Shown here one piece after another: positions 21,357-56,643 of a stretch of DNA of 64,000 bases; position 1 is the stretch's first letter; each line of letters starts with the position of its first letter. This stretch comes from an uncultured Candidatus Saccharibacteria bacterium (GTDB lineage: Bacteria > Patescibacteriota > Minisyncoccia > Phycocordibacterales > CAYSCM01), in assembly GCA_964429815.1 (NCBI GenBank), contig CAYSCM010000001.1, positions 256,001 through 320,000 on the forward strand, given 5' to 3'. The position numbers and the translations under genes are program-made. Below the pieces are notes generated by a model. It worked only from the letters and a program-made list of their open reading frames with translations. It searched no databases and was not told where the DNA came from.

Positions 21357-21878
21357 ATGCTCGAACTCATCAAAAAACAAAACGATGCGCACAAGGCGCT
21401 CTCCTACAAAAACGTAATGCAGACACCAAAGATCGAGAAGGTCATCGTCTCGATCGGCGTTGGCTCTGTGAAGGACAAGAAAAAATTTGACGTCATAACA
21501 GACCGCCTCGCGAAGATCACGGGCCAAAAGGCCGCTCCGCGCGCCGCCAAGAAATCGATTGCAACCTTTAAGCTGCGCCAGGGGGACGTCGTCGGGTTCC
21601 AAATCACGCTCCGAGGCTCGCGCATGAAGAATTTTCTCGAACGCCTTCTCGCGGTGGCGCTTCCACGTACCCGCGACTTCCGTGGGCTTGATCCTAAGGC
21701 TATCGACGAGATGGGTAACCTCACCATCGGCATTAAGGAGCACACTATTTTCCCTGAAACCTCTGACGAGGATCTCAAGGACGTCTTTGGATTTGCCGTG
21801 ACGGTGGTTACTACCGCCAAAAGTCGCGACGAGGCACTGAAGTATCTCACCTACCTCGGATTTCCTTTCAAGAAATAA
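21357..21878 (+). CDS. rplE: 50S ribosomal protein L5
   Basis: L5 core; start trimmed to MLELIKK. Confidence 0.9.
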   Translation: MLELIKKQNDAHKALSYKNVMQTPKIEKVIVSIGVGSVKDKKKFDVITDRLAKITGQKAAPRAAKKSIATFKLRQGDVVGFQITLRGSRMKNFLERLLAVALPRTRDFRGLDPKAIDEMGNLTIGIKEHTIFPETSDEDLKDVFGFAVTVVTTAKSRDEALKYLTYLGFPFKK

Positions 21879-21949
21879 AAAGCCCTAGCTTTCAGAGCAA
21901 TTTGTATTTTTTGGGCTTCAGCTTAGGTCGAGCTTTCGGACCGGAGCAG

Positions 21950-21979
21950 TTGACAATCTCCACTATTATATAGTATAAT
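21950..21979 (+). promoter_or_regulatory. consensus sigma70 promoter (TTGACA-18-TATAAT) driving DGR target gene
   Basis: TTGACA 21950-21955, TATAAT 21974-21979; ~135-nt leader to AAGGAGGT RBS. Confidence 0.6.
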
Positions 21980-22117
21980 TCTTTCCATAACACTAGTTCC
22001 TTGATTTGGTTTTGCCCTGGCAGGAAGAGCTTTCGTTGAGAGAATTTCCTGCTGTGGCAAAGCCCGTTCGGGCCGAGTCTGAACAGCACTGTAAAAACGC
22101 TCAAAGGAGGTAATCTC

Positions 22118-22759
22118 ATGAGCGAACAACAGATCGCCAAGCTCGCCGGCGCATTGGTGGAGCACCAACGGCATTTCGGTGCCATGCCAACCGAGGATCG
22201 CCAGTGGGCGATCCAGAATACTGAAGCGGCCATCGGTCTATTCGCCGTTGCAGTGAAGAACCGCGACAACGGCCAGACACAGAAACCAAGGACGCTCTTG
22301 AAGTTCGTGGCGAGCGTAAGCATCGCCGCGATCGAAGGCTTCAAAGTCTCCGAGAACTTCGAGGAGGGGAAGTTGGGCCCGGTCAGAATCTATTGGCTCG
22401 GCGACGACTTCAAGAAGCACTTCGGCCGCAAGACCGAGAGCGCTTTGGAAGCAGTCGAGCTGAAGGTTCACACTCTGACCAAGGCTTCGCTCGATGCCCC
22501 GATCATCGCGGAACTCGCGGGCAATGCGGAGATCACGATGGGCCAGTTCTTCGCTCTGCTATCGAAGCAGGGCAAGGGCGAGAGCGGGCCGCTCCTTACG
22601 AACGGCTACGCCAACATCGCCTACATCCGCGACGACGAGGGCGTCCTATGGGCGGTGGACGCCCACTGGCACGCCGGCCGCGGGGGCTGGGACGTCTACG
22701 CCGACTCAGTCGCCTACCCGGGCGAGTGGGACCGGGGTCGCCAGGTTCTTTCCCGCTGA
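22118..22759 (+). CDS. DGR variable (target) protein, 212 aa, VR at C-terminus
   Basis: strong AAGGAGGT RBS; C-terminal 36 codons form VR; no signal peptide visible. Confidence 0.8.
   Translation: MSEQQIAKLAGALVEHQRHFGAMPTEDRQWAIQNTEAAIGLFAVAVKNRDNGQTQKPRTLLKFVASVSIAAIEGFKVSENFEEGKLGPVRIYWLGDDFKKHFGRKTESALEAVELKVHTLTKASLDAPIIAELAGNAEITMGQFFALLSKQGKGESGPLLTNGYANIAYIRDDEGVLWAVDAHWHAGRGGWDVYADSVAYPGEWDRGRQVLSR
22649..22756 (+). repeat. DGR variable repeat (VR)
   Basis: 92/108 identical to TR; all 16 substitutions map to TR adenines (11 AAC and 2 GAC codons). Confidence 0.9.
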
Positions 22760-23097
22760 TTCTCGAACCCTTAAGCCCTCGGCCTGAGATCCTTTGACCC
22801 TCTGAAACTTTGCGAAGCAATTTGCGAAGGAGTAGGAGGGTCTTCTATTTTTTATTTTGATATAGTAAGACGTGAGGAGTGCTACTGATGCGGCGGCTAC
22901 GGCTTCCGCACAGCGCCTCGAGTATCTGTATCGCCAGAATCACGTCGGCTAAGGCTTGCGCGAGAGCGCGTGCAGGTACTCTTAAAAAAGATAAAGAATC
23001 GGTGCCTCATGCTGGCGGACTTCAAGGTCCCACATACGATACAGCTCGGAGAGTATTCGATGGGTGGTGTTATTGATGGCTTAAGGCACACAACGGA

Positions 23098-23206
23098 TGG
23101 GCGGTGAACGCCAACTGGAACGCCGACAACGGGGGCTGGAACGTCAACGCCAACTCAGTCGACAACCCGAACGAGTGGAACCGGGGTAACCAGGTTCTTT
23201 CCCGCT
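23098..23206 (+). repeat. DGR template repeat (TR), 11 AAC codons
   Basis: TGGGCGGTGAACGCCAACTGGAACGCCGACAACGGGGGCTGGAACGTCAACGCCAACTCAGTCGACAACCCGAACGAGTGGAACCGGGGTAACCAGGTTCTTTCCCGCT. Confidence 0.9.
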
Positions 23207-23570
23207 ATTCTTTTCTTCCCCCGCCCTTCGGCGGGGTTTTGCTTTCGAGGCCCCTCTTCCATCCCCCAACCATCCGACCCAGTTCGTGCACTTTTTCCGA
23301 GAGAGCAGCATACCTCTTTGTGTCAAGCGCGCGCAGCTCCCATGCGACTCGTAAAAGGAATTTCGCGGTGTCTATTTTTTTGAGTGTGTGAAAAAGTGTC
23401 GGCACTTTTTCACCCGAGCCCTGATAACTTGCGGTGAAGAGAAGTTCCAGCGTGTCTATGAGCGAAAAGTCGATGCGCTCACCGAGTGTATACCGGGCGT
23501 TTTTTGGAAAGTTGTTCCTGCACTCATGCCAGATTTTATATACTGCAACAGCATGTTCAATAACCGGCAA
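23205..23570 (-). CDS. avd: Avd-like accessory variability determinant (four-helix-bundle / 23S rRNA IVS protein family)
   Basis: 121 aa, basic; FPKNARYTLGERIDFSLIDTLE motif resembles FPKxExYxLxxQxxRAxxS of PF05635; stop codon abuts TR end; opposite strand to TR/RT. Confidence 0.6.
   Translation of the reverse strand: MPVIEHAVAVYKIWHECRNNFPKNARYTLGERIDFSLIDTLELLFTASYQGSGEKVPTLFHTLKKIDTAKFLLRVAWELRALDTKRYAALSEKVHELGRMVGGWKRGLESKTPPKGGGRKE
23218..23246 (+). terminator. GC hairpin plus T-run immediately 3' of TR
   Basis: CCCGCC-cttc-GGCGGG then gttttgcttt. Confidence 0.5.
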
Positions 23571-23590
23571 AAGTCGTTGGGGGGGTCGCT

Positions 23591-24592
23591 TTGAGGTCGC
23601 AACTCGCTCATACGTATGACGATATCATCTCGCTAGAAAATCTCCTTGCCGCATGGCAGGAATTCGTGCGCGGGAAGCGCAAAAAATGCGACGTGCAAGA
23701 GTTTCAGTTTCGGCTCGTGGACAATATTCTTGAGCTCTACCGTGACTTGAAAGAGAAAACATACACGCATGGGCCGTACCACCCTTTTAAAATAAGCGAC
23801 CCTAAACCCCGCGACATCCACAAGGCGAGCGTACGCGACCGGCTCCTCCACCACGCAATATATCGGAAACTCTATCCATTCTTCGACAAAATTTTCATTG
23901 CCGATTCGTACTCATGCAGGAAAGGCAAAGGAACACACAAGGCGATGAACCGTTTTCGTTCCTTTGCATACAAGGCGAGCTTAAATCACACAAAAACGCT
24001 TTGGGTGCTCAAGTGCGACATCAAAAAGTTCTTTGCATCAGTCGATCAGCATGTTCTCCTGGAGATTATTAGGCGCTGCATTTCTGACACCGACATCCTC
24101 TGGCTCATCGAGCGAGTCGTGCAGAGTTTCAATCCCAGCAGGGAGGGCACGGGTCTCCCGCTCGGCAATCTCACCTCGCAGCTTTTAGTGAATGTGTATA
24201 TGAACGAGTTTGACCAGTTTGTGAAGCGCACCCTCAAAGCGAAATACTACATCCGTTACGCCGATGATTTTGTGATTTTCTCGCAAGATGCGAAATGGCT
24301 CCAACAAATATGCAAATATATCAGCATATTCTTACGTGAACGGCTGAAACTCGAATTGCACCCTAATAAAGTATCGATCACAACGCTCGCATCCGGTATC
24401 GATTTTCTCGGCTGGGTGAATTTTCCTGATCATCGCGTGCTACGCACCTCGACAAAGCGGCGGATGTTGAAGCGAATGACTGGTGAGCAATCTAAAGAGA
24501 TCATCAAACCGTATTTAGGGCTTCTTCAACATGGGAACAGCAAAAAGCTGCAATTGAAAATCTTGTTTGACACAGCAGAGGCAATCAAGTAA
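23591..24592 (+). CDS. DGR-type reverse transcriptase
   Basis: 333 aa; [20 protein letters not shown] (DGR [ILV]GxxxSQ in place of group II QGxxxSP), [14 protein letters not shown] box. Confidence 0.9.
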
Positions 24593-24734
24593 GCTCATCC
24601 CACAAAGCCGAGTAGGGCTTTTCTTTTGGCAAGTGCTAAACCGTCTACGCGGTCGCATACTCCCAGAAGAAAGGGAAGAATACTTCTCTTTTTTCACTCC
24701 ACACGTGGGGGATTGCCAGAAGTTCGTATACCAC

Positions 24735-24920
24735 ATGGCAAAAACCTCAGTCATCGTTCGAAGCAAACGAAAGCCCAAGTTTAAGTCTCGGGTTGTTCGT
24801 CGCTGTTTCAAGTGCGGACGCAAGCGCAGCTACATGCGCGACTTTGACCTGTGCCGCATCTGCTTCCGCGAACTCGCGAACGAAGGCATGATCCCGGGCA
24901 TTAAGAAAAGCTCCTGGTAA
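24735..24920 (+). CDS. rpsN: 30S ribosomal protein S14 type Z (zinc-binding)
   Basis: 61 aa, CFKCGRK...CRIC zinc ribbon. Confidence 0.9.
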
Positions 24921-51431: not shown

Positions 51432-52061
51432 CTAATGCGCCAGTGCGATGAGGACGACTTCGCGCGCTCCGGGAAGCCGGAGCGCGCGTTTTGCTTCCGA
51501 GAGCGTAGCACCGGTGGTCATGACGTCGTCGACGACGATAAGAAGGCCCTCCGGCAAGGCTCCGGTCAGAGCGAAAGTCCCTTCAACATTCTGAAGCCTC
51601 CCCTGCCGGGAGAGCGAAGTCTGGGGCGCTGTGTCGCGCATCTTTTTTAAAAGTCCCGCGACACGGGCCTCGCCGAGCCTTCGTGCCGCAACGGCGAGAA
51701 CAAGCTCGACCTGGTTAAAACCCCGCGCACGCAGGCGCTCTTGCGAGAGCGGAGAGGGGATGAGAACGAGCGGGCGCTCGAGCACGCCCTCGTCTTCCAC
51801 AAACGACAGCAGGGCCTCGGCGAGTGCGCTTCCGAGAATCTCCGCACTGCGCCTATCCCTTCTGTACTTAAGCTCTCGTATGAGCGCGCAGACAAGGGGA
51901 TCTTTGTAGGAGGAGAGGACATGTATACCGTCGACAACGGTGCCGAAGGAGAATTTCGAAAGCGCTTCTGCGTCGCTTGTCGCGGCGATGAGCGCGGCTT
52001 CTCTGCGTTGCGGCAAGAGGAGGTTGAGAAGTTCCAAAAGCGCACGGCGAACTTTCTCCAT
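51432..52061 (-). CDS. comFC: ComF family phosphoribosyltransferase-domain competence protein
   Basis: C-terminal PRTase motif LIVVDDVMTTGATL. Confidence 0.75.
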   Translation of the reverse strand: MEKVRRALLELLNLLLPQRREAALIAATSDAEALSKFSFGTVVDGIHVLSSYKDPLVCALIRELKYRRDRRSAEILGSALAEALLSFVEDEGVLERPLVLIPSPLSQERLRARGFNQVELVLAVAARRLGEARVAGLLKKMRDTAPQTSLSRQGRLQNVEGTFALTGALPEGLLIVVDDVMTTGATLSEAKRALRLPGAREVVLIALAH

Positions 52062-52115
52062 GACCTTAATCTAGCCACGCTAACGTTGTGGGCGCAACGG
52101 GGTATACTACAAGGA

Positions 52116-53252
52116 ATGGTACGTTTAGGTGCTTCACTTTCTTCGCTTTTTGGCGGTGTGTTTTCGCAAAAACCCGCCGAAAGCGTCGTGGGCGTCGACA
52201 TAGGCTCTTCTTCTATAAAGGTCGTACAGTTGCGGCGTAAGTCCGGCGTTCCCGTCCTTGAGACGTACGGCGAGCTCGCGCTCGGCCCTTACGGCGGAGT
52301 CGAGATCGGTCGCGCCACGAATCTAGGGCCCGACGTCATAGCCAAAGCGCTCAATGATGTTGTGCGCGAGGCCAATGTCACCGCAACCTCCGGCGGCTTC
52401 TCCATCCCCTTCAGCGCCTCACTCATTTCACTCATCGAGCTTCCGCAGGTGCCTCCCGGTCAGCTCGCCCAGATGATCCCGCTCGAGGCGCGCAAGTACA
52501 TCCCCGTCTCAATCGGCGAGGTGACGCTCGACTGGTTCGTCATACCCAAAGAAGAAGCGCGCTACCTGTCCCTTTCGGAAGATAAGGAAAAGGCGCCGGA
52601 AGCGTCCAAAATAAACGTGCTCCTTGTCGCTATCCACAATGACACGCTCAGCAAGTACCGCGACATCATAAAACAGACCAAGCTTACACCAGGATTTTTC
52701 GAGATAGAGATCTTCAGCGCCGCTCGCGCTTCACTCGAGCAAGGCATTGCACCGGTCATGGTCCTCGACCTCGGGGCTGCGACCACGAAGCTCTACATCG
52801 TCGAGTACGGCATCGTGCGTGCCTCCCACAACATCAACCGCGGCGGGCAGGACGTGACGCTCGCACTTTCCCGCACCCTCGGCGTTTCCGTCCAAAAAGC
52901 GGAGGAGATGAAGCGCGAACTCGGGCTCCTGCCGGGGCAAAACGGCACGGGGGTATCGGAGACGGCGCTCCTCTCCCTCGAATACATTTTTTCGGAAGCC
53001 AATCGTGTGCTTCTCTCCTATGAGCGGCGTTTCAATAAAAACGTCAGCAAGGTGGCCCTCGTCGGCGGCGGAGCCATTATGAAGGGACTTCTTGAGGTCT
53101 CGAAAAAACATTTCCAGACGGACGTTGTGCTCGGGAACCCTTTTGCGAAAGTCGAGGCTCCAGCGTTCCTGGAGCATGTTTTGCGACAGGCCGGGCCGGA
53201 ATTTTCCGTCGCGACGGGACTTGCCCTTCGAAAGCTCTCCGAGCAGGGATAA
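52116..53252 (+). CDS. pilM: type IV pilus assembly protein PilM
   Basis: actin-like ATPase fold, VGVDIGSSSIKVVQL; TATACT 7 nt upstream. Confidence 0.8.
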   Translation: MVRLGASLSSLFGGVFSQKPAESVVGVDIGSSSIKVVQLRRKSGVPVLETYGELALGPYGGVEIGRATNLGPDVIAKALNDVVREANVTATSGGFSIPFSASLISLIELPQVPPGQLAQMIPLEARKYIPVSIGEVTLDWFVIPKEEARYLSLSEDKEKAPEASKINVLLVAIHNDTLSKYRDIIKQTKLTPGFFEIEIFSAARASLEQGIAPVMVLDLGAATTKLYIVEYGIVRASHNINRGGQDVTLALSRTLGVSVQKAEEMKRELGLLPGQNGTGVSETALLSLEYIFSEANRVLLSYERRFNKNVSKVALVGGGAIMKGLLEVSKKHFQTDVVLGNPFAKVEAPAFLEHVLRQAGPEFSVATGLALRKLSEQG

Positions 53253-54867: not shown

Positions 54868-56643
54868 ATGGAAAAACTACTTGAACTTTTAGTCGACAAG
54901 GGAGTTCTCAGCGCTTCCGATGCCGCTGCAATAAGCTCGCAAGCCACCGCCGAAGAGGGGGCCGAAGAGCAGCTTCAAAAGCGCGGCGTGAGCGCCGAAG
55001 ACATCCTTACCACAAAGAGCGATTACTACAAAGTTCCCTGGAAGACACTTGGCGACGAGACGGTCGCCATCGAGACCCTGCGCTATATTCCCGAAGAGTC
55101 GGCGGCGCACTACCGCTTCGTGCCGCTCGCACAGCGCGACGGGGTCCTTGAGGTTGGTATCCTCGACCCGGACAATATCGAAGCGCTCGATGCCCTTAAT
55201 TTCATAAGTTCGAAAATGGGTGTGCCCTACAAGGTGTTCCTCATCACCGAAGAGGATTTCAAAAAAGTCATTGGCATGTACAAGGGCCTCTCCTCCGAAG
55301 TGGGGAAGGCGCTATCCGAGCTCGGCGGGGAGCTTGGAGAGGCTGACGACCTTGAGACTCAGCTCTCGGAGGTGAAGGGGAAACTCAAAGAGGACGAAGA
55401 GCACATCAAGGAAGATGCCCCGGTCACGAAGATGGTCGCCACCATCATCCGCTATGCGGTCGAAGGGCGTGCTTCGGACATACACATCGAACCCACCGCC
55501 ACGAATGTGCGCGTGCGTTTCCGCGTCGACGGCGATCTCTACACGTCGCTCACTCTTCCCGCTGCCGTACAGAAAGCCATCGTCGCGCGCATCAAAATAC
55601 TCTCCCTCATCAAGCTCGATGAGAAGCGGAAGCCGCAGGACGGTCGTTTTTCGGCCATGGTCGACAACCGGCGCATCGATTTCCGCGTTTCGACTTTTCC
55701 CACCTCCTACGGTGAAAAGGTCGTGATGCGCATCCTTGACCGCGACAAGGGAGCCATCAAGCTCACCGACCTCGGGATGGAAGAGGAGCAGCTTGCGGCG
55801 GTCCGCGACATGATAAAGCACCCCTACGGCATCATTCTTCTCTCGGGCCCGACCGGCTCCGGTAAGTCGACAAGCCTCTACGCGATGCTCAACGAGATGG
55901 ACCGCGAAAAGAAAAACGTCGTCTCGCTCGAGGACCCGGTCGAGTATGACATCCAGGGCGTCGCGCAGTCTCAGGTCCGCCCGGAGATAGGCTATACGTT
56001 CGCTTCGGGGCTCCGTTCTATACTGCGCCAAGACCCGAACGTCATCATGGTCGGCGAGATCCGTGACAAGGAAACGGCCCAGCTTGCGGTGCAAGCGGCC
56101 CTCACCGGACACCTCGTCCTCTCGACCATCCACACCAACACGGCTGTCGGCGCAATACCGCGCCTCATCGATCTTGGCGTCGATCCGTTTCTCATCGCGC
56201 CGACCTTGATCGGCGTCATCGCCCAACGTCTCGTCCGTGTGCTCTGTAAGGGAAGCGGCAAGAAAATGCCGGTCGAAGGGAGCATCAAAATAATGCTCGA
56301 GAAACAGTTCGCTGATCTACCCGCCAAGTACCGCAGCCAGATCCCAACCGGAAAGTCCGTCTACGGTCTCGATCCGACGCCAGAGTGCCCCTCGGGGACC
56401 CGCGGGCGCACGGGGGTGTTCGAATTCCTCACCATGGATGCGGCGATCGAATCGATCATCCTCAAGCATCCGGTCGAGGAGGAGATCTGGACCATTGCGC
56501 GCGGTCGAGGCATGTTCACCATGAAGGAAGACGCGATCAAGAAAGCGATGAAAGGAGAGATACCGTTCGAGGAAATAAATACCCTCGGCGGGGCGCTCCT
56601 CACCGACGAAGAAGCGCCGCAAGGGGAAGAGGCGAAGTCATAG
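54868..56643 (+). CDS. pilB: type IV pilus assembly ATPase PilB (GspE family)
   Basis: N-terminal GSPII_E_N domain, Walker A GPTGSGKST, Asp/His boxes. Confidence 0.9.
   Translation: MEKLLELLVDKGVLSASDAAAISSQATAEEGAEEQLQKRGVSAEDILTTKSDYYKVPWKTLGDETVAIETLRYIPEESAAHYRFVPLAQRDGVLEVGILDPDNIEALDALNFISSKMGVPYKVFLITEEDFKKVIGMYKGLSSEVGKALSELGGELGEADDLETQLSEVKGKLKEDEEHIKEDAPVTKMVATIIRYAVEGRASDIHIEPTATNVRVRFRVDGDLYTSLTLPAAVQKAIVARIKILSLIKLDEKRKPQDGRFSAMVDNRRIDFRVSTFPTSYGEKVVMRILDRDKGAIKLTDLGMEEEQLAAVRDMIKHPYGIILLSGPTGSGKSTSLYAMLNEMDREKKNVVSLEDPVEYDIQGVAQSQVRPEIGYTFASGLRSILRQDPNVIMVGEIRDKETAQLAVQAALTGHLVLSTIHTNTAVGAIPRLIDLGVDPFLIAPTLIGVIAQRLVRVLCKGSGKKMPVEGSIKIMLEKQFADLPAKYRSQIPTGKSVYGLDPTPECPSGTRGRTGVFEFLTMDAAIESIILKHPVEEEIWTIARGRGMFTMKEDAIKKAMKGEIPFEEINTLGGALLTDEEAPQGEEAKS

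Follow-up and report, generated by a model that had tools for sequence, protein, structure and literature searches.

What appears to set this DGR locus apart is a conserved expression cassette, and especially the structured leader of its target gene. The same combination of promoter and leader hairpin was found to precede over 100 small DGR-type genes with at least six variable repeat (VR) scaffolds, and a conserved leader hairpin specific to DGR target genes appears to be undescribed; full-text literature searches returned no description of such a leader. In its retroelement and its small target without export signals, the locus is typical of the CPR DGR clade. Indeed, the central point of a preliminary description of the window (the whole 64-kb stretch of DNA that was analysed), namely that the target carries no signal for export, is correct but not new: a survey with SignalP and TMHMM (Roux et al. 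2021; PMC8144416) reported the targets of CPR clade 2 to be devoid of transmembrane (TM) segments, signals, and other domains, so that the lack of export signals is a property of the clade and not an oddity of this locus. The same survey stated that a genuine non-membrane-bound status 'remains to be established', and the cassette bears on this question of whether the CPR DGR targets are truly non-membrane proteins. Furthermore, it represents a dedicated conserved cassette amid an otherwise largely leaderless genome that is poor in Shine-Dalgarno (SD) sequences, its covarying 5'-UTR hairpin offers a handle on the expression and regulation of these proteins, and the same hairpin may be used as a sequence tag for DGR targets in metagenomes, solitary ones included.

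The reading preferred here, with moderate confidence, is that of a non-exported, probably C-type-lectin-like variable binder that is produced from a dedicated cassette, with the leader as a cis-regulatory RNA and the template repeat (TR) transcribed separately. The cassette would consist of a sigma-70 promoter, a leader of ~130 nt (with a conserved box, a conserved hairpin of 19-27 bp, and a second hairpin that is short), a strong SD, the open reading frame (ORF), a box flanking the VR, and its own terminator. The TR would give rise to a structured RNA of its own, driven by a -10 promoter of the native type. Judged by the sequence features, the reverse transcriptase (RT) with Avd copies the TR RNA into cDNA with errors at adenines, and this cDNA replaces the VR and recodes 17 C-terminal codons. 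The protein would most likely be a soluble binder inside the cell, or be released only by non-classical means, and its exchangeable N-terminal three-helix module would probably dock it to a partner. The hairpin, as a sense-strand cis-element, may govern how the variable-protein mRNA is processed or translated, or how stable it is, which is the least certain step; most likely, this would run through a protein that binds the hairpin, such as a dedicated factor or an RNase specific for double strands. All features of the locus are collected in Table 1.

Table 1. Features of the target gene, the template repeat RNA, and the retroelement genes, in coordinates of the window.
Feature	Position	Strand	Remarks
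Target-gene promoter	21950..21979	+	TTGACA (21950-21955), 18-nt spacer, TATAAT (21974-21979)
5' leader, ~132 nt	21986..22117	+	Putative transcription start, from the -10 element
Box A, GTTCCTTGA	21996..22004	+	Conserved single-stranded box, 3 nt before the hairpin in the window
P1, long leader hairpin	22008..22064	+	24 pairs in the window; detected as an inverted repeat
Leader remainder	22063..22103	+	Short hairpin right after P1 (CCCGTTCGGG type) and conserved GAACAGCACTGTAAAAACGCTC box
Shine-Dalgarno sequence, AAGGAGGT	22104..22111	+	6 nt before ATG
Variable-protein ORF (DGR target)	22118..22759	+	ATG start, TGA stop, 213 aa
Variable repeat (VR)	22648..22757	+	Residues 177-213, runs up to the stop codon
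Box GATTCTCGAA	22758..22767	+	Directly 3' of the VR, absent after the TR
Putative target-gene terminator	22796..22859	+	Stem GACCCTC(T)/(G)GAGGGTC, inner hairpin, T-rich run
Extended -10-type element, TGATATAGT	22858..22866	+	Directly behind the T-run; presumed TR-RNA promoter
Conserved 5' domain of TR RNA, ~225 nt	22873..23096	+	Upstream of the TR
Template repeat (TR)	23097..23206	+	28 adenines
avd accessory gene	23205..23570	-	Between TR and RT, opposite strand
Post-TR segment	23207..23240	+	Pyrimidine tract, GC hairpin CCCCGCC-CTTC-GGCGGGG (23219-23236), TTTT
DGR reverse transcriptase	23591..24592	+	333 aa, TTG start

Retroelement and chromosomal setting

Judged by its sequence, the locus is a complete DGR, with VR, TR, Avd, and RT. 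The TR lies at an offset of 449 nt from the VR, to which it is 85% identical over 110 nt, and all mismatches (16/16) fall at TR adenines, affecting either the first or the second position of a codon. Both repeats end in the same 17 nt, and divergence begins downstream of these. The codons that are mutable at adenines comprise eleven AAC codons plus GAC, GAG, and CAG, allowing ~10^15 possible proteins without stop codons. The RT was recognized by RVT_1 (E = 4e-26) and by the PHROG RT family (E = 1e-107), its translation displays the motifs LGNLTSQ and YADD, and it is 59-67% identical to RTs that adjoin VR/TR pairs at other loci. Similarly, the Avd protein matched Pfam bAvd (E = 6e-14) and the PHROG family 'Avd protein of DGR' (E = 3e-21), with a score of 73.4 bits against NCBIfam DivGenRetAVD, which is below the cut-off of 80. 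The adenine-confined VR/TR mismatches and the presence of Avd and RT thus uphold the earlier assignment of the ORF as a DGR target. The inverted orientation of avd was kept in related loci. Within the window, the target ORF was the sole one associated with this TR and no further VRs were found; a search for contig pairs differing solely in the VR, which would be a sign of activity, returned none.

The cassette is located between the ribosomal protein genes rplE (L5, end at 21878) and rpsN (S14, start at 24735). In the string of ribosomal protein genes around it, L15 directly follows S5, and the absence of L30 is typical of CPR bacteria. The same order, L24-L5-target-TR-avd, was retrieved in an independent short-read assembly (L001). 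Among genomes, the chromosomal position of the cassette varies, its neighbours being housekeeping genes, those for ribosomal proteins among them. In the loci compared, the variable-protein gene was not accompanied by any conserved effector or partner gene. With the known DGRs of CPR bacteria or Patescibacteria (clade 2; Roux et al. 2021, Paul et al. 2017), the locus shares its cellular nature, a small signal-less target, and adenine-specific differences between VR and TR. In contrast, the publications consulted, among them Roux et al. (2021), contain no description of a conserved promoter or leader hairpin at the target genes, of a terminator belonging to the target gene, of a structured domain before the TR, or of an inverted avd.

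The variable protein and its export signals

The variable protein is small, as was reported before, with 213 aa by translation instead of the 212 aa given. The earlier statement that it possesses neither an N-terminal signal peptide nor a TM segment was borne out by simple hydropathy analysis and inspection of the N-terminus, and the same result was obtained across the family. The N-terminus (MSEQQIAKLAGALVEHQRHF) does not display a hydrophobic core behind a positively charged n-region, the maximum Kyte-Doolittle value over 19 residues is 1.38, which leaves no TM segment, and a lipobox is absent since the protein does not contain any Cys. In addition, no upstream in-frame start could provide a signal peptide, as a TGA at 22037-22039 interrupts the frame, which contains no ATG, GTG, or TTG from this stop codon to 22118.

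A protein search yielded 103 homologues of 138-259 aa, almost all of 190-230 aa, originating from Kaiserbacteria, Adlerbacteria, and other Patescibacteria, none of which contained a Pfam domain. About 250 relatives are as short as the protein of the window. The homologues with N-terminal extensions that the preliminary description had proposed to look for did not hold up, the longer entries (P0045 and P0063) being due to mis-called starts inside the leader. The family is modular, with at least six unrelated N-terminal segments preceding the same core, and the N-terminal segment of the window protein (MSEQQ...AVKNR) heads other C-terminal scaffolds too. An exhaustive HMMER scan with residues 1-52 retrieved 144 cluster representatives among 1.84 billion, in which the module occurred almost only at residue 1 of proteins of 190-250 aa and never together with a large, membrane, or enzyme-bearing partner; a word-indexed search with the same 52-aa module returned a single match. 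A weak repeat similarity was seen between the N-terminal module and the secreted repeat protein P0163. When the inspection for export signals was extended to the 103 homologues and to 109 ORFs located via the leader hairpin, no signal peptide, lipobox, or TM segment was found in any of these more than 200 family members, with their many different N-termini. The absence of export signals is, in these translations, systematic across many N-terminal modules, and the protein would not be a Sec, Tat, or lipoprotein substrate.

The AlphaFold2 model (based on an alignment of 87 sequences; mean pLDDT of 91) comprises a three-helix bundle (residues 3-47), a linker of low confidence (residues 48-60), and an alpha/beta domain (residues 61-213). 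On two predicted strands, the variable residues (181/183/185, 187-188, 192/194/196, 199-200, 202, 205, and 208) occupy alternate positions (i, i+2, i+4), separated by invariant W/A/V, as expected of one exposed face of a sheet. The VR domain is probably C-type-lectin-like, and the recoded residues would lie on one face of it; the DGR variable proteins with a C-type-lectin fold (Mtd, TvpA, AvpA, and TaqVP) are the comparison class for this domain. Foldseek searches against PDB and BFVD gave nothing significant, and the target did not match any family of Pfam, NCBIfam, or PHROG (E <= 1 or 0.01), whether FGE-sulfatase, DUF1566, or another.

The known intracellular DGR targets elsewhere are large multidomain proteins, unlike the protein of the window, which consists of just a helical module of ~50 residues and a variable domain. 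Nevertheless, the intracellular DGR targets of cyanobacteria and multicellular bacteria, which two reports (PMC7517822, PMC10907252) present as regulators or as putative antigen sensors in conflict systems, constitute a precedent for diversified binders without export signals. Alternatively, the protein may act outside the cell, reaching the surface non-classically or upon cell lysis and being anchored through its N-terminal module to a surface structure, such as pili or the S-layer, for host attachment of an episymbiont (the role put forward for the majority of DGR targets), which is possible but rather doubtful. Such a role would fit the finding that DGR targets in cells are for the most part binders that are secreted or anchored in the membrane (PMC8144416), the exchangeability of the N-terminal modules, as expected for docking domains, the occurrence of the type IV pilus genes PilB and PilM among the other genes with a strong SD, the proximity of a PilM gene to the cassette in L022, and the weak repeat similarity to P0163. 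Against it speaks the lack of a signal peptide, lipobox, or TM segment throughout the family, whereas secreted CPR proteins, such as P0163 itself, carry classical signals; moreover, a pilin-type N-terminus is absent and the link with pili is circumstantial.

The promoter and leader of the target gene

The near-perfect TTGACA-18-TATAAT promoter mentioned in the preliminary description was found to be the only 12/12 match in 13 kb. A promoter match of at least 10/12 was present at 77/103 related sites, with the -35 element being exactly TTGACA in 69 of these 77, and 13 of 15 related genome loci possessed a TTGACA-16/19-TATAAT-type promoter (at least 10/12) at 110-180 nt before the start. The strong SD was retrieved as well, and all related target genes likewise possessed a strong SD. 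The contrast with the native genes was also real, as these have promoters of the leaderless type and rarely an SD: many first genes have TATACT, TATAGT, or TATAAT ending 6-10 nt before the ATG, operon-internal genes start a few bases after the preceding stop codon without an SD, and an SD-like motif precedes 11/66 ORFs in the window, being strong at only 4/66 (the target, PilB, PilM, and one unknown).

The leader is indeed long, albeit ~132 nt instead of the ~135 nt estimated before, and it is structured, with a fold of -53.1 kcal/mol (z = -4.2 versus shuffles) and a conserved, covarying hairpin. Box A follows the consensus G[GT]TCYTTGA across leaders, roughly 3-16 nt before the hairpin. The long hairpin (P1) was present in all 15 inspected loci except L002, with a length of 19-27 bp across relatives, a variable loop length, and two sequence types (CGCCACAGCAGAAA...TTTCTGCTGTGGCG for type 1, CAGTCATAGCCAAAA...TTTCTGGCTATGACTG for type 2) in both of which pairing is retained. 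The short hairpin behind it covaries by eye (CCCG/CGGG versus CCTG/CAGG; CTCGAC/GTCGGG versus CTCAAC/GTTGGG), and the GAACAGCACTGTAAAAACGCTC box is common to the loci L004, L015, and L018. The spacing is regular, with mostly 28-38 nt between the end of the -10 element and the hairpin and 40-70 nt between the end of the hairpin and the start codon.

RNAalifold assigned 21 consensus pairs to an alignment of 18 sequences, 13 of them with compensatory changes. A covariance model (R1) scored 56.4 bits at P1 of the window, with no other match in the 64 kb, and gave one strong plus-strand match per related locus, always upstream of a target-type gene, including two loci outside the training set; it did not find the motif at the related loci L002 and L016. 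In the 71 distinct matches to the model, 96% of the cells were paired and 14/21 pairs changed on both sides, and the covariation of P1 amounted to 0.33, compared with 0.14 for shuffled alignments (0/500 reaching 0.33) and 0.06-0.09 when the partners were slid. In the lower stem, much of the covariation comes down to one split between the two sequence types, and the sequence there is more conserved than pairing alone would demand. Independent support for P1 comes from the upper stem, with its many independent compensatory changes, from the type-2 loci found through their proteins, and from the matches outside the training set.

When the type-1 hairpin alone was used as a metagenome query, 113 contigs were retrieved; as the scan pattern demands complementary lower arms, the lower-stem pairing in most of these hairpins is partly by construction. 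The ORFs downstream of the hairpin encode 109 distinct small proteins, mostly of 160-250 aa, with many N-terminal modules and at least six VR-like C-termini, as judged by eye. Among the sites with at least 2.5 kb of downstream sequence, 22/47 contained TR RNA, inverted avd, and/or RT in the same order, the rest being solitary.

The hairpin would act as a sense-strand RNA, in view of its G·U pairs, its variable loop length, and its fixed place between promoter and SD. Indeed, G·U pairs are conserved at two positions of P1 (in 51/71 and 58/71 sequences); read from the opposite strand, these would turn into A·C, pointing to a sense-strand RNA and not to a symmetric DNA site. The suggestion of a riboswitch-like fold did not find support, as the leader contains one long and one short hairpin, no multi-helix aptamer, and no Rfam match. 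Searches of positions 21700-24800 of the window and of five related loci did not assign an Rfam family to either the leader or the TR RNA, the motifs RT-1 to RT-19 were not matched at E <= 10 (positions 21700-24800) or at E <= 0.5 (the five related loci), and no terminator or alternative structure masking the SD was supported in the leader. Processed or protein-bound 5'-UTR hairpins are known, for instance the RNase III sites of leaders from phages and bacteria. With these, P1 has in common an imperfect helix of ~20-25 bp with internal loops between promoter and SD, a likeness that serves as a lead; it differs in a lower stem conserved beyond pairing. Three further ideas were abandoned, namely Box A as an anti-SD (duplex energies no better than shuffles; mean z = -0.06) and, since type-2 leaders did not share them with those of type 1, a sequence link between leader hairpin and TR RNA and an alternative pairing of the 3' arm of P1 with a downstream ACAGC box.

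It is unlikely that the hairpin works as DNA or in the DGR reaction itself, either as a cruciform or single-strand hairpin marking cDNA integration or as a site for Avd-RT. The motif accompanies VR-bearing genes of unrelated scaffolds, indicating that it tracks the DGR system and not a protein family; known DGRs use a hairpin or cruciform beside the VR for efficient homing (PMC5758913, PMC3240598), and the usual GC-rich repeat 3' of the VR, which follows the VR in only 34% of DGRs (PMC5758913), is not evident at this locus. However, ~580 nt separate P1 from the VR downstream of it, unlike the known recognition elements, which are situated at the VR 3' end, a cruciform is disfavoured by the A·C mismatches that the G·U pairs imply on the other strand, and a fixed distance 3' of a strong promoter and 5' of an SD corresponds to the placing of an mRNA leader. 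It is less probable still that promoter and leader lack a special function and reflect recent spread of the cassette, hitch-hiking, or a stable palindrome. The varied chromosomal sites of the cassette suggest mobility and the two sequence types dominate the lower-stem covariation, but the coding part has diverged beyond recognition while the leader retains sequence, pairing, and spacing; moreover, the upper stem shows independent compensatory changes and the -35 element is exact in 69 of the 77 sites with a promoter match.

In the founding DGR, that of Bordetella phage BPP-1, the diversified protein belongs to the tip of the tail fibre and is likewise devoid of a signal peptide. Despite this precedent and the PHROG matches of Avd and RT, it is highly improbable that the ORF is a phage-derived receptor-binding module, as the preliminary description had considered, in a cassette belonging to a prophage or phage remnant, since the target has neither a PHROG match nor a structural match in BFVD, 2.9 million viral contigs contain neither of the hairpin types (versus 113 metagenome matches for type 1), the neighbours are ribosomal and other housekeeping genes, and a cellular nature is ascribed to CPR clade 2 (PMC8144416).

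An extension of the preferred reading, a sense-strand leader RNA controlling a non-exported binder, is put forward as speculation and is itself considered improbable. Promoter and hairpin might form a DGR-specific regulatory RNA that couples the dose of the binder to its diversification, in a family of small intracellular hypervariable binders with swappable modules. If so, a DGR component or a dedicated factor would recognize the promoter and leader hairpin, the ultra-small bacteria would possess an internal diversified recognition system and not surface adhesins, and the swappable N-terminal modules would plug the binders into different cellular partners.

Boxes, putative terminator, and proposed template RNA downstream of the variable repeat

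In most of nine aligned loci, the VR is followed by GATTCTYGAA or a close variant and the TR by TAYTCTYTTCTTTC, the corresponding sequences in the window being GATTCTCGAA after the VR versus ATTCTTTTCTT after the TR. The GATTCTCGAA box may thus be a candidate discriminator of VR from TR. A VR-specific inverted repeat (GGTTC...GAACC) that was described as spanning the VR 3' end up to 22775 did not stand. Its arms (22744-22748/22765-22769) form 5 bp around a 16-nt loop and do not reach 22775, its left arm lies within the part homologous to the TR, an equal repeat occurs in 30% of random 40-nt windows, and it was not conserved in eight other loci with aligned VR and TR ends. With this chance frequency and without conservation, it was rejected as a DGR cruciform.

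The putative target-gene terminator folds at -31.6 kcal/mol (z = -2.7), and a stem with T-run is kept at the equivalent site in nine loci. At the position of TGATATAGT, these nine loci possess TATAGT, TATACT, TATAAT, or TAGTAT, an element type as encountered at native genes, and TGATATAGT may be a native-type promoter of the TR RNA. The 5' domain of the TR RNA displays conserved blocks with visible compensatory changes in nine loci. Similarly, a covarying hairpin with T-run is present 3' of the TR in most of the nine loci and is terminator-like. Two RNAs would be produced, a target mRNA from ~21986 to ~22850 and a TR RNA from ~22873 to ~23240. A single transcript of target and TR is unlikely, because a conserved terminator followed by a -10 element is located between them.

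Like the BPP-1 DGR RNA and the Rfam RT-10 motif (PMC5737381), the locus would specify a conserved structured RNA with the TR, presumably for cDNA synthesis. Whereas BPP-1 has a structured spacer between TR and RT, the conserved domain in the window is upstream of the TR, 3' of which there is a short hairpin alone, with avd antisense in the TR-RT interval. Such a separate TR RNA, with its conserved domain 5' of the TR, would point to a template RNA whose layout is a variant of that in other DGRs. An nhmmer search with the TR-RNA unit gave 88 matches, and the 70 listed ones lie in about 60 loci, some of them with other VR scaffolds. Lastly, short CTTTGR-like repeats occur between the GATTCTYGAA box and the terminator stem.

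Candidate template RNA and arrangement of the cassette

The template repeat (TR) of the diversity-generating retroelement (DGR) is preceded by a conserved, apparently structured RNA domain of ~225 nt, which matches no Rfam family. The same domain was retrieved from L002, L004, L005, L007, L008, L010, L011, L017, and about 50 further loci. A -10 element of the type used by the native genes precedes the domain, and a covarying GC hairpin with a U-run, immediately after TR, ends the unit. In phage BPP-1, a structured RNA lies between TR and the reverse transcriptase (RT) gene, whereas the domain of the present DGR lies upstream of TR. The unit is a candidate template-RNA architecture for the clade of CPR DGRs. 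The interval between TR and RT is occupied by the accessory gene avd in opposite orientation. At its 3' end, avd extends over the post-TR hairpin up to the end of TR, and just 20 nt separate its start from that of RT. This inverted layout was kept in 11 of the 18 genome loci, as well as in the metagenome loci of sufficient length. Several short CTTTGR/CTCTGA-like repeats occur between the stop codon at the end of the variable repeat (VR) and the terminator, and also in the equivalent regions of L004-L011. The post-VR box, GATTCTYGAA, appears to resemble box A of the target leader, GTTCYTTGA.

Coordinates of features in the window and in related loci
Feature	Position	Strand
DGR cassette (2.85 kb)	21878-24735	
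Post-VR short repeats	22768-22795	
TR RNA unit	22873-23240	
avd	23205-23570	-
Start-proximal -10 elements (examples)	3145, 30224, 33916, 35328, 44956, 56694, 61169	
PilM gene (type IV pilus)	51921-53249	
PilB gene (type IV pilus, T2SSE ATPase)	54868-56640	
Leader motif copies, L088	383-491 and 1894-2002	
RNase P RNA match, L004	5929-6400	-
Sigma-70 family gene and 106-aa ORF, L023-L028	3912-4849	

Insertion among ribosomal-protein genes

The cassette is flanked by rplE (L5) and rpsN (S14), in a string of ribosomal-protein genes that is tightly packed except at this insertion. Neither L5 nor S14 adjoins any of the 18 related genome loci, which makes this insertion site specific to the genome of the window. 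The cassette brings its own terminators and one minus-strand gene into the string, so that S14 and the genes beyond it must depend on a promoter of their own or on read-through. A further case of a cassette among core genes was seen in the Kaiserbacteria locus L004, where an RNase P RNA match (99.6 bits, slightly below the gathering score of 100) lies directly 3' of the RT gene.

Expression signals of the native genes

Throughout the window, TATACT, TATAGT, or TATAAT elements end 6-10 nt 5' of the ATG of many first genes, a sequence pattern suggesting that leaderless mRNAs are widespread in this genome. Operon-internal genes lack a Shine-Dalgarno (SD) sequence; any SD-like motif was found for only 11 of the 66 ORFs. 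A strong SD precedes only four ORFs, including those of the DGR target, PilM, and PilB. In the related locus L022, a PilM gene lies ~4 kb from the cassette.

Target genes in related loci

Two copies of the leader motif, the conserved hairpin upstream of the target ORF, were present in both L088 and L102, each followed by a small ORF, which suggests multi-target arrays at these loci. L099 contained a second, weaker match (38 bits), but a downstream ORF was detected at neither of its two motif sites. In the secreted CPR protein P0163 (582 aa), the ~35-residue motif ALVYFGAxxxRMPSxxDDW is repeated four times; it shows weak similarity to the N-terminal module of the target (summed E = 6e-7), a match that may be spurious. 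In the Adlerbacteria loci L023-L028, the target is 162 aa long and has no N-terminal module, and an ECF-type sigma-70 family gene and an ORF of 106 aa lie directly 5' of the target cassette.
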